Source of the DNA: a virus
Taxonomy: Duplodnaviria; Heunggongvirae; Uroviricota; Caudoviricetes
Length of the DNA: 50,568 nt
IMG/VR virus record: IMGVR_UViG_3300047548_001036
Span: 64,001-114,568 of that record
Strand: one strand, 5' to 3'
Positions within the stretch are counted from its first letter, which is position 1. Each line of letters starts with the position of its first letter. Of this stretch, positions 33,156-46,270 are shown one piece after another. The notes beneath the pieces are model-generated. The model worked only from the letters and a program-made list of their open reading frames with translations. It was not told the DNA's origin and ran no database searches. The position numbers and the translations under genes were made by a program.

Positions 33156-33576
33156 GAAACAAGCATATCAATTAGAAAAATTTTTAGAAGATGAGCTAAT
33201 AAAAAAGCCTCCAATAACAGTATTATCTAACGGGTCTTTAGTATATAATAATTTTATTATTGATAAAACATCAATAGAATCTTGGTCATTAAAAAGGCGT
33301 GGCGGTAATCTTTTAGATACGTTTAATTTAAAAGCCAGTGCCATTGCTGCTGCAAATTTATACAGTCGCAATAATTTTAAAAACTATAGCAGCCTTAAAA
33401 TATTGGACGAAATGTACTTTAAACATAGTACAGACGCTAACAGATACAAAAATAGATATCAAACAACAAACGACCTAGATCTTAGAGATTTATTTATTTC
33501 AAGATATATGGAATCTAAAGAGCGTGCCGATTATGCTAAACAGCAAATAGTCACTCAGTTCAGAACGATGTTTTGA
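33145..33576 (+). CDS. Hypothetical protein
   Basis: About 143-aa ORF overlapping the upstream stop. Confidence 0.7.
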   Translation: MNFKKQAYQLEKFLEDELIKKPPITVLSNGSLVYNNFIIDKTSIESWSLKRRGGNLLDTFNLKASAIAAANLYSRNNFKNYSSLKILDEMYFKHSTDANRYKNRYQTTNDLDLRDLFISRYMESKERADYAKQQIVTQFRTMF

Positions 33577-33611
33577 TAAATAAAGAATAACAAGTCATTA
33601 GGAACCCTAAT

Positions 33612-34526
33612 ATGCAAATCAGAGATTTATCAGGTAAAATAACCAGTCAAACACTAAATGAAAGTTTAGCTAAAAAGTTCGGCTATCGCTTACAGTTAGA
33701 CAAATTCACCGAATCACAATTATCAAAAGTTCAGCAAAAACTTGCCGAGCAAGTGTCGGAGTTTGAGCGCACTAACAGTTTCGATAGCGTAATCGAGAAT
33801 CACGAATATCAGAAAAATCGTGCAATGCTAGATGTTGTGCGCCAAGCTATTAAAGAGCGTGCTTTAAGCCCTGAAGAAAAAACAAAGCGTGAAAAGTATG
33901 TTAAAGGCATGAAGAAAGCCAAAGGCGAATTTAAAAAGCGTTACGGCAAACGAGGCGAAGAAGTTATGTACGCTACTGCTAGCAAAATGGCTAAGAAAGA
34001 GTCTATCGACGAAGCTATGGCAATTCTGCGTGGGGTATTGAGCGAGCGCACACTAACTGAAGGCGAAGAAGAAAAGGCAGCACTAATCATGTCTTCGAGA
34101 GACATGGTAGATAAGATTACTGGATGGTTGGAAGACGTTTCCAGTATGAAGGCCGAAACGATGTTAGATCTCGTAGACTCTATAAGAGATGAATTAGGCA
34201 GTGAAACAGCTGAGCAATTTTCTAGTACCGTGAAACCTGCGTTAGAAGATTTATATAAGAATTTAGAACAACATCGAACAACAATGGCACAGGCTGTTAG
34301 CATTTTAACAGGCGAAGAAGGCCCGCATGGAGCACCAGGAAACGTTGGCGTTGCAGGAATGCCTAGTGGTGATGAACTTGGTGCTGAAATAGGCGCAGAA
34401 GGTCCTCCCGCAGCAGGTGGAGAAGAGATACCCGAAATGCCACCGGAAGCCGAAGTTCGTATGAAGCGTGAAAGCATTGAGTACAGCCGTAAACTAGGCA
34501 CAATTTTAAGTTCAAAAAAAAGATAA
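33612..34526 (+). CDS. Conserved helical protein, probable prohead core/scaffold-type
   Basis: 304 aa; TAAATA at 33577. Repeated [LI]-x-E sites (LNE, IKE, LSE, LTE), acidic Pro/Gly-rich tail; ends in an A8 run (SKKR*). Confidence 0.75.
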   Translation: MQIRDLSGKITSQTLNESLAKKFGYRLQLDKFTESQLSKVQQKLAEQVSEFERTNSFDSVIENHEYQKNRAMLDVVRQAIKERALSPEEKTKREKYVKGMKKAKGEFKKRYGKRGEEVMYATASKMAKKESIDEAMAILRGVLSERTLTEGEEEKAALIMSSRDMVDKITGWLEDVSSMKAETMLDLVDSIRDELGSETAEQFSSTVKPALEDLYKNLEQHRTTMAQAVSILTGEEGPHGAPGNVGVAGMPSGDELGAEIGAEGPPAAGGEEIPEMPPEAEVRMKRESIEYSRKLGTILSSKKR

Positions 34527-34870
34527 ATGAGAGCGAAGATCCTTTACTGAATCTTTTAGCTTCTCAGCAAGCTCGCGCCTTAAGTAAAAATAGCCCTTCA
34601 AGTTTTTCTTGGAGGGCTATCGCATCTATGTACCGTGACCTCACTGGTCGTAACATTGACGGACAAAACTTATATGCTGAGTTTGAAAGAAAATACAATA
34701 AAAATAAAGAGTCATTCGATAAAATAATTGGAAACTTTGACCAAAACGGCGTTGAGCTTAAAGCAGCCGAAGAGGAAGAAGTGGCTAATCCTGAAAAAGC
34801 TTCTGCTAAGAAAAAAGTTGATAGCATGGCAAAACGTGCAAGTACCAAGCTGCTGAAAAAGAAAACTTGA
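34520..34870 (+). CDS. -1-frame ORF overlapping the end of 33612..34526 (frameshift extension, or an independent gene from ATG 34628)
   Basis: Frame is open 34493-34870 with no ATG until 34628; reads KINESEDPLLNLLASQQARALSKNSPSSFSWRAIASMYRD... Confidence 0.6.
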   Translation, partial: KINESEDPLLNLLASQQARALSKNSPSSFSWRAIASMYRDLTGRNIDGQNLYAEFERKYNKNKESFDKIIGNFDQNGVELKAAEEEEVANPEKASAKKKVDSMAKRASTKLLKKKT

Positions 34871-34895
34871 CACTATACAGAAATAGCTACATAAT
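34867..34895 (+). promoter_or_regulatory. sigma70-type promoter (probably a leaderless transcript)
   Basis: TTGACA - 17 nt - CATAAT; ATG 6 nt downstream; no SD. Confidence 0.7.
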
Positions 34896-45106: not shown

Positions 45107-46270
45107 ATGATTTTAGGAATTCTATTGCTCTTGGCAGGGCTCACTATCTCTGCAGTTGCAATCTATTATTCAGTTTTAGGCCTAGCTGCAATATTTGCAG
45201 CTGCAACTATTCCCATATACATTATGGGAGGAGCACTAGAAGTTTCAAAATTAATAGCAGCCAGTTGGCTCAAAGCCAACTGGCATCGAGCCACAGGACT
45301 AATCAAATATTATATGTTAGTCGCGGTGACCATACTAATGATTATTACCAGTATGGGTATCTTTGGCTTTTTAAGCAAAGCTCACTTAGACCAAAGTGTT
45401 CCAGCAGGCGACGTTGCTGCGCAAGTTGCATTGCTTGACGAAAAAATTAAAATCCAAAAAGATAACATAGATTCTGCAAGACGAGCATTAGAGCAGATGG
45501 ATTCTCAGGTTAACCAACGGCTAGCCGGCAATAATGCACAGCAATCCGCAGAGCGTAGTGTTCAAATTCGTAGGGCACAGGCTAAGGAAAGAGCAGCATT
45601 GCAGTCCGAAATTACAACAGCACAACAAACTATTTCAAAACTAAATGAAGAACGTGCTCCTATCGCTAGTCAGCTTCGTAAAGTAGAAGCCGAGGTCGGT
45701 CCGATTAAATACATTGCACAGTTTGTTTATGGACAAGAAGCTGATCAGGGGCTTTTAGAAAAATCTGTAACCTGGGTTATTATTTTAATTGTTTTAGTAT
45801 TTGACCCATTAGCAATTGTTATGCTTCTTGCAGCTCAAATGACATTTAATTGGTATAAAAAGGACAAGGAGCAAAAAAATGATATTATCAATACAATTGA
45901 TGATACTGAGCACAGTGATAATAAAAACGCTGATAGCGGACTTTTATTGGTTCCTGAACCCTCAGCTGAACCCGTTGATGAACCAGTGGTTGAATCCAAG
46001 GTAACAGACATACAACCTGTATCTATCTTGTCTAAACACCCATATTTAGAAAAACCGTTCTCACACTTTAAGAATCTAACACCTTTAGTTAGCAAAACTA
46101 ACAAAAAAGAAGAAATACCTACACCAGAGATTGAAGTGCCGGTAACTGAAGATGTAGATTCTACCGAAGGTAAAAAGTATAAGCTTTTACCCGAACTACA
46201 AGAAGAAACCCAAAAAAAAAAGTTTATAATCAAGACTCAGGGACAACAGTTAACACGAACAACGAAATAG
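45107..46270 (+). CDS. Membrane-anchored coiled-coil protein
   Basis: Three or four N-terminal TM segments, 'FGFLSKAH', a long coiled coil, 'EVGPIKYIA', TM 'VIILIVLVFDPLAIVMLLA' and an acidic linker; A10 run near the end. Confidence 0.82.
   Translation: MILGILLLLAGLTISAVAIYYSVLGLAAIFAAATIPIYIMGGALEVSKLIAASWLKANWHRATGLIKYYMLVAVTILMIITSMGIFGFLSKAHLDQSVPAGDVAAQVALLDEKIKIQKDNIDSARRALEQMDSQVNQRLAGNNAQQSAERSVQIRRAQAKERAALQSEITTAQQTISKLNEERAPIASQLRKVEAEVGPIKYIAQFVYGQEADQGLLEKSVTWVIILIVLVFDPLAIVMLLAAQMTFNWYKKDKEQKNDIINTIDDTEHSDNKNADSGLLLVPEPSAEPVDEPVVESKVTDIQPVSILSKHPYLEKPFSHFKNLTPLVSKTNKKEEIPTPEIEVPVTEDVDSTEGKKYKLLPELQEETQKKKFIIKTQGQQLTRTTK

Follow-up and report, generated by a model that had tools for sequence, protein, structure and literature searches.

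The locus considered here comprises a gene of unassigned family, which we call gene A, and a second reading frame that overlaps its 3' end, in a 50,568-nucleotide (nt) stretch of viral DNA hereafter termed the window. The window forms the last 50.6 kb of the 114.6-kb IMG/VR record IMGVR_UViG_3300047548_001036, a fragment that is about 32% complete; the source is an uncultured giant T4-like water phage, and the complete genome of one relative measures 364 kb. Gene A occupies positions 33612..34526 of the plus strand, on which the run, codons, hairpins, domain and ATAAATA box described below also lie. Its 0-frame product is a short protein of 304 amino acids (aa) with the C-terminus ...LSSKKR*, and its 3' end reads TCA AAA AAA AGA TAA. 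The run of eight A's (A8, 34514..34521) contains the slippery heptamer A_AAA_AAA (34514-34520) in X_XXY_YYZ phase, with the P-site AAA at 34515-17 and the A-site AAA at 34518-20, and the 0-frame stop TAA (34524..34526) follows one codon past the heptamer. An open -1 frame spans 34493 to 34870, and its first ATG is the internal Met codon at 34628..34630; no ATG, GTG or TTG occurs earlier, over 104 nt, and the +1 frame stops within 6 codons. A first-pass annotation of the window had described the gene end, the run, the open frame and its late first ATG, and had proposed that a programmed -1 frameshift extends the 304-aa protein to about 419 aa. The description was borne out in the sequence: the trans-frame part (34520..34870, 116 codons plus stop) added to 303 residues of gene A gives exactly 419 aa, and the junction reads ...SSKKKINESEDPLL as claimed. 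The GGAGG that it had placed 12 nt upstream of ATG 34628 was likewise found, at 34611-34615.

The window alone proves nothing in this respect, because an A8 run is ordinary in A-rich DNA (6 matches in the window vs 11.8 expected, and so not beyond chance) and the hairpin that follows it folds no better than shuffled sequences; the significance of the run comes from relatives. Only one other coding A-run of at least 8 is present in the window, an A10 at 46212-46221 in gene 45107-46270, with an in-phase A_AAA_AAG; the two remaining A8 runs (9787, 14720) sit at gene junctions.

Homologues of gene A numbered 2398 in the protein collection. The best 120, in which lengths were checked, measure 292-327 aa, nearly all of them about 300-308, and no fusion of A with the extension was found among these 120 or in the frameshift lineages. 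Loci were fetched from viral (76) and metagenome (80) records together with several close relatives, which yielded 105 distinct loci at 30-88% protein identity. An in-phase run of A8 to A10 ends gene A in 104 of the 105 (A9 in 87, A10 in 12 and A8 in five). The phase of the run is identical throughout; the ending is commonly TCA AAA AAA AAG TAA in freshwater loci and NNA AAA AAA AAG GCT TAA in marine ones, with the 0-frame stop zero or one codon after the run. In the 86 complete loci, the -1 open reading frame (ORF) extends 105-109 codons beyond the 0-frame stop, and the +1 frame closes at once. The codons of the run are strongly constrained. The first Lys codon is AAA in 104 of 104 loci and the second in 102 of 104, and the third, in the 104 loci with a run of at least eight, is AAG in 78, AAA in 12 and AAC in nine; AAG thus has a share of 75% here vs 26% of Lys codons elsewhere in the gene, and twelve relatives use AAA AAA AAA TAA. 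The codon before the run ends in A in all 104 loci, being TCA, GGA, CCA or ACA (Ser, Gly, Pro, Thr), or AAA in two loci. Such a composition indicates selection at the nucleotide level, and the run makes two overlapping in-phase heptamers, A_AAA_AAA and A_AAA_AAG, or equivalently a length sufficient for polymerase slippage. One metagenome locus (L134) has A8 where its near kin L032 and L136 have A9, which places its extension in the +1 frame; this reflects either a homopolymer error or natural variation of run length.

The -1 frame is coding from the run onward. Its translations align from the first residue after KKK, well 5' of Met 34628, with the consensus KKK-V-x-E-x-AD-x-LIR-x-L..L..RADSK......SW.A.S.M..N..G..DY..FK and a basic tail after it. 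At codon positions 1/2/3, divergence was 0.45/0.38/0.62 in the 34 codons 5' of the Met vs 0.47/0.36/0.61 downstream of it. When the window was compared with its closest relative (L158), the omega values were 0.04 (gene A), 0.13 (extension) and 0.25 (linker), which indicates that purifying selection acts on the extension in the lineage of the window; its frame is intact. The Met is a conserved internal residue, though absent from several relatives, in which the first ATG of the region appears at +149 to +293 or not at all. No Shine-Dalgarno sequence or GGAGG precedes the Met outside the window's subclade, and within it the GGAGG derives from a conserved Trp codon. Hence the A-run and the protein similarity upstream of Met 34628, which the first-pass annotation had singled out for comparison among relatives, are both conserved, and no relative combines a normal start with an unconserved segment 34520-34627.

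A hairpin downstream of the run (hairpin 1, 34528..34566) is presumed to act as the frameshift stimulator. In the window it is bulged and weak: the hairpin drawn in the first-pass annotation is the minimum-energy fold, but its spacer from the heptamer is 7 nt rather than the 6 given there and its stability is no greater than that of shuffled sequences. The freshwater relatives present a much clearer picture. In 47 distinct freshwater sequences, the 55 nt past the run had a mean z of -3.6 vs shuffles, with 81% below -2, and they form a stem-loop of 9-12 bp (typically GAUGCGGAU/AUCCGCAUC) beginning 5-8 nt past A_AAA_AAG. In a 49-sequence alignment of the homologous hairpin, 87% of cells are paired vs 39-50% with slid partners; double-sided changes affect 58 cells vs 25.8 +/- 4.5 in shuffles (0/500 reach 58), and the covariation score is 0.357 vs 0.242 shuffled (0/500). 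One pair, which couples the third, synonymous base of an Asp/Gly codon with the first base of an Ile/Val codon lying six codons on, is U-A in 26 sequences and C-G in 18; protein constraints do not explain this switch. Four divergent loci (L004, L028, L126 and L159) form a hairpin at the same place from different sequences. Within the window's own subclade, A9-G-TAA occurs in all seven other members, which are 76-88% identical to the window, together with a GCAGAUCC/GGAUCUGC-type hairpin whose energy ranges from -11 to -17 kcal/mol (-15 to -17 in five); A8-GA-TAA with a degenerate bulged hairpin is found only in the window and in L160. No match for the RNA was found in Rfam, and no upstream Shine-Dalgarno-like stimulator was evident on inspection by eye only.

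AlphaFold2, supplied with a 62-sequence alignment, modeled extension residues 10-87 at a predicted local distance difference test (pLDDT) score of 80-93. The elements of the model follow the order helix, strand, helix, helix, short helix and two strands, and they constitute a winged-helix-like domain encoded at 34541..34774. Structural matches were all winged-helix proteins (OmpR/PhoB, ESCRT-II, RepA_C, Stn1 and ORC2), with Z values of 4.5-6.3 and a template-modeling (TM) score of about 0.5; this is a weak but consistent indication that the extension adopts such a fold. Pfam and PDB sequence searches returned no family for the extension, and an 829-aa match to it (P0125) was rejected as spurious, being a Sel1-repeat protein. 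Helix 1 and strand 1 are encoded 5' of Met 34628, which is residue 39 in the middle of helix 2, and so a start at 34628 would truncate the domain. An I-x-E motif that the first-pass annotation had noticed in the extension proved, as a motif, to be widely shared: in 103 of 104 loci, K-[LIV]-x-E coincides with the junction, within a presumably flexible segment whose pLDDT is below 50. The Glu codon of this motif is also part of the hairpin base, and the invariant Glu is therefore perhaps kept for the RNA. The T4-type prohead protease PF03420 is present in the complete 364-kb relative (G001), and no match to it was found in this fragment, about 32% complete. The junction motif would fit cleavage in the head.

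Natural variants were sought through a search for longer proteins that contain the extension. Two such proteins (P0140 and P0141), from different samples, are 76% identical in the extension part. Both are encoded with A10-G instead of A9-G, at the marine loci L167 (1220-1229) and L170 (1526-1535), whose contigs may derive from DNA or from cDNA; the A10-G joins A and the extension in one ORF of 352-353 aa with the predicted junction SKKKVNE. Both alternative frames of these loci stop within 0-2 codons. Thermus dnaX has this layout, which suggests that both the long and the short form are wanted. A different arrangement was found in the L168 lineage: the gene A homologue (439 aa, Pfam DUF3008) ends ...RILAGR* and lacks the A-run, and the domain (P0139) opens a separate 463-aa gene, 1 nt past the stop, with its own Shine-Dalgarno sequence and ATG and the N-terminus MKLFEVDSPDSNLVLLL. 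That the domain starts at this same point in P0139 confirms its N-terminal boundary, and its opening residues, MKLFEV, also hold the K-[LIV]-x-E motif. In this lineage (L168:1680-4392, and L169), the 463-aa protein has a glycine-rich hydrophobic middle and a basic tail, and a GIY-YIG endonuclease gene lies two genes downstream.

We are highly confident that programmed -1 recoding of one kind or the other takes place at the A-run throughout the family, as the first-pass annotation had suggested for the window: the start-less -1 ORF and the in-phase run are conserved, and two relatives are fused in frame. Gene A and the downstream frame would then be one recoded gene with two products. Most ribosomes would stop at the stop codon of gene A and release the 304-aa short form. 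We infer that a fraction slips back by one base, with the two tRNA-Lys re-pairing from AAA AAA (34515-34520) to 34514-34519, and these ribosomes would read the -1 frame to 34870 and produce a 419-aa long form, composed of protein A, a linker with the conserved K-[LIV]-x-E, the winged-helix-like domain and the basic tail. It is probable, with rather less assurance, that the recoding is chiefly ribosomal -1 frameshifting, which is taken as the main mechanism because most relatives combine a dnaX-type A_AAA_AAG with a stable stem-loop 5-8 nt on. In E. coli, no heptamer shifts more readily than A_AAA_AAG, the site used in dnaX (PMC5009743). RNA-polymerase slippage on the same run would give the same protein and may contribute, and both processes may act together. 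The recoding is likely to be still active in this window, which carries a weakened version (A_AAA_AAA, A8, degenerate hairpin) that probably shifts less often.

Several observations weigh against ribosomal shifting, or against a need for the fused product. The heptamer of the window, A_AAA_AAA, is less shifty than A_AAA_AAG in E. coli (PMC5009743); the tRNA-Lys set of the phage host may differ. The run is kept at nine A's, beyond the need of a heptamer, which fits either polymerase slippage or two overlapping heptamers. Hairpin 1 of the window, at -11.9 kcal/mol, has a z of -0.2, and 76 of 200 shuffles fold equally well; in the marine clade no hairpin reaches significance (mean z -0.4), so the hairpin is not universal. 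Finally, because the L168 lineage encodes the domain in a separate gene, covalent fusion is not obligatory for it.

One rival explanation, also listed in the first-pass annotation, is that transcriptional slippage is the chief process, in which RNA polymerase would add one A in part of the transcripts and standard translation would then yield the same 419-aa protein. We consider this a possible, though rather unlikely, explanation. It would account for a run that is A9 or A10 in 99 of 105 loci and so longer than a heptamer needs, for the A that ends the preceding codon every time, and for the hairpin-less marine clade; moreover, the other frames of the A10 relatives both stop at once, as in the dnaX gene of Thermus thermophilus, where slippage occurs on A9 (PMC5009743). 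The extra A's are, however, also explained by two overlapping in-phase heptamers, and the run of the window is only A8. The preference for AAG at the third codon matters for tRNA re-pairing and shortens the run, and a covarying stem-loop lies 5-8 nt downstream. Such a stem-loop is the hallmark of ribosomal -1 shifting and is not known to play a part in polymerase slippage. A further possibility is that the device is decaying in the window's lineage, with little or no long form made and the extension heading for loss; the seven sisters with A9-G-TAA and stronger hairpins, set beside the A8-GA-TAA and weak bulged hairpin of the window and L160, give this idea some substance. We nevertheless hold it to be improbable, as the extension is intact with the omega values given above (0.13, and 0.25 for the linker), A_AAA_AAA remains an in-phase slippery heptamer, and twelve relatives themselves end in AAA AAA AAA TAA.

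Two other explanations would dispense with recoding altogether. The extension could be an independent 80-aa gene that starts at ATG 34628 with GGAGG as its ribosome-binding site, 12 nt upstream, and gene callers do annotate 78-80-aa ORFs of this kind. The first-pass annotation had listed this alternative, which now appears very unlikely: protein conservation, codon pattern and constant length begin at the run, 35 codons before the Met, which falls within helix 2 of the predicted fold and which several relatives lack. Only the window's subclade has the GGAGG, and in the window a 13-bp stem sequesters it. A TAATG overlap that would permit termination-reinitiation was also considered and rejected; an ATG is found there in only about 19 of 104 loci (VME/IME junctions), and it is not a general mechanism because the window has no ATG at that position. 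An assembly error, also raised in the first-pass annotation, would mean that the true genome is one A longer and contains a single 419-aa ORF; homopolymers are error-prone, and two relatives do have a fused ORF with A10. Yet L160, which was assembled independently from a different sample, shows the same A8-GA-TAA, and the window differs from its sister loci at the run by a substitution (AAG to AGA) and not in length. These two facts exclude an error as far as the data go. More than 100 loci from many assemblies, in addition, keep the two-frame layout with the 0-frame stop conserved right past the run, and we regard this explanation as having hardly any chance of being correct.

The stem that holds the GGAGG belongs to a second hairpin (hairpin 2, 34590..34620), with a perfect 13-bp stem, a 5-nt UUUUU loop and the arms AUAGCCCUUCAAG / CUUGGAGGGCUAU. 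It lies inside the extension coding sequence, 64 nt past the 0-frame stop, and no U-tract follows it. The stem arms are unchanged in seven of eight subclade members despite about 17% local divergence, the remaining one (L164) differing in the loop and closing pair, and the hairpin is absent from the other clades. Possible roles include an effect on the processing or stability of the mRNA, a block to internal initiation, and stimulation of the shift from a distance.

The predicted model of protein A consists of helices only, one of them C-terminal, and residues 236-277 make up an acidic, disordered stretch. The first-pass annotation had called the protein core/scaffold-like; the helical, acidic and partly disordered model is compatible with that label, but no homology supports it. 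Pfam and PDB sequence searches gave no match for protein A, a fold search with its model returned only helical matches, which are meaningless, and its PHROG matches are weak. Protein searches of GenBank phage records with gene A and with a marine homologue gave no match. At the DNA level, the sole match in gene A among GenBank phages is a 70-bp motif that recurs in a cyanophage gene without assigned function (in Synechococcus phage metaG-MbCM1), at a locus that has no A-run. This match corresponds to a basic motif, KYVKGMKK..FKKRYG....VMYATA.KMAKKE, which is DUF3008-like and is inserted in the freshwater versions of gene A at 33880-34000 (residues ~92-140); unrelated inserts replace it in the marine versions, and it looks like a mobile module.

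Upstream of gene A, an ATAAATA box (33576..33582), read directly from the sequence, appears to resemble the T4-type late promoter, TATAAATA, and would suggest late expression of the gene. The genes on the 3' side are those for a PD-(D/E)XK exonuclease (34902), for a 512-aa protein that matches Mtd_N and for ribonucleotide reductase. A sigma-70-type promoter close to consensus (TTGACA, 17 nt, CATAAT; 11/12) at 34867-34895 overlaps the end of the extension just 5' of the exonuclease gene, and a transcription-unit boundary between the late gene A and an early or middle exonuclease gene may lie near these positions. No tRNA genes were found in the window.

With regard to function, we put forward, tentatively and as an idea that we think will more probably prove wrong than right, that the slip is a device for dosing and delivery into the head. 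On this view the domain, with its winged-helix-like fold and basic tail, would lack a targeting signal, and protein A would supply the MxxxD/E-L...LNE leader of the phage. The domain would enter the prohead only as an extension of A and be freed by the protease at K-[LIV]-x-E, and we infer that the slip rate would then fix the copy number of a DNA-binding protein that is packed along with the genome and perhaps also injected with it. Where the domain has a gene to itself, its MKLFEV start would, in the same way, represent its own leader and cut site. Apart from function, the finding bears on annotation. At this locus, gene callers report a 304-aa gene and either a truncated ORF of 78-80 aa or nothing at all for the second part, and consequently a whole domain is mis-annotated in thousands of metagenomic records of a protein that is widespread in uncultured giant T4-like aquatic phages. 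The family also offers a natural series for studying the co-evolution of slippery site and stimulator, which runs from A_AAA_AAG with a strong hairpin through A_AAA_AAA or A_AAA_AAC variants and the hairpin-less marine clade to the in-frame A10 and the split two-gene form. The mechanism is a known one, in a gene family not described before. Comparable recoding in T4-like phages is not mentioned in a review of recoding (PMC5009743) and was not found in our literature searches, and the present case adds to these phages a recoding event outside the tail-chaperone paradigm.

Among known systems, the tail assembly chaperone G/GT of lambda and most long-tailed phages is likewise a conserved phage -1 shift: it occurs close to the 3' end of a late gene and gives some of the molecules an additional C-terminal domain, in a ratio that presumably matters. 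Gene A differs in that it is not beside the tape-measure gene, its neighbors being the exonuclease and ribonucleotide reductase genes, and protein A, with its 304 aa and predicted all-helical structure, has a slippery site of another type and no match in the tail-chaperone families. The internal proteins of T4, which are cut by the prohead protease (gp21) at (L/I)-x-E, provide a parallel for the K-[LIV]-x-E that marks the junction almost without exception, and a gene for such a protease is present in the complete relative; cleavage and head location would here be predictions from the motif, whose Glu codon also serves in the hairpin base.

The transcriptional slippage on A9 or T9 in Thermus thermophilus dnaX and Shigella spa13/mxiE likewise involves a homopolymer of about nine bases, and the A10 relatives described here similarly have nearby stops in both other frames; a slipped product would be indistinguishable from a ribosomal one. 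Unlike in those systems, the covarying hairpin and the AAG preference point to the ribosome, and the run of the window is A8. The E. coli dnaX gene, which produces tau and gamma, shares with most relatives of gene A the A_AAA_AAG heptamer read by tRNA-Lys and a stable stem-loop a few nt downstream, and the A10 relatives are arranged as dnaX is, the long form being read in frame and the other frames being closed by stops. The two kinds of protein are unrelated, the shift in the present family gives a longer product and not a shorter one, the run has nine A's (the window itself has A_AAA_AAA), and no upstream Shine-Dalgarno-like stimulator was seen here by eye. In both cases one gene would give two products in a set ratio.

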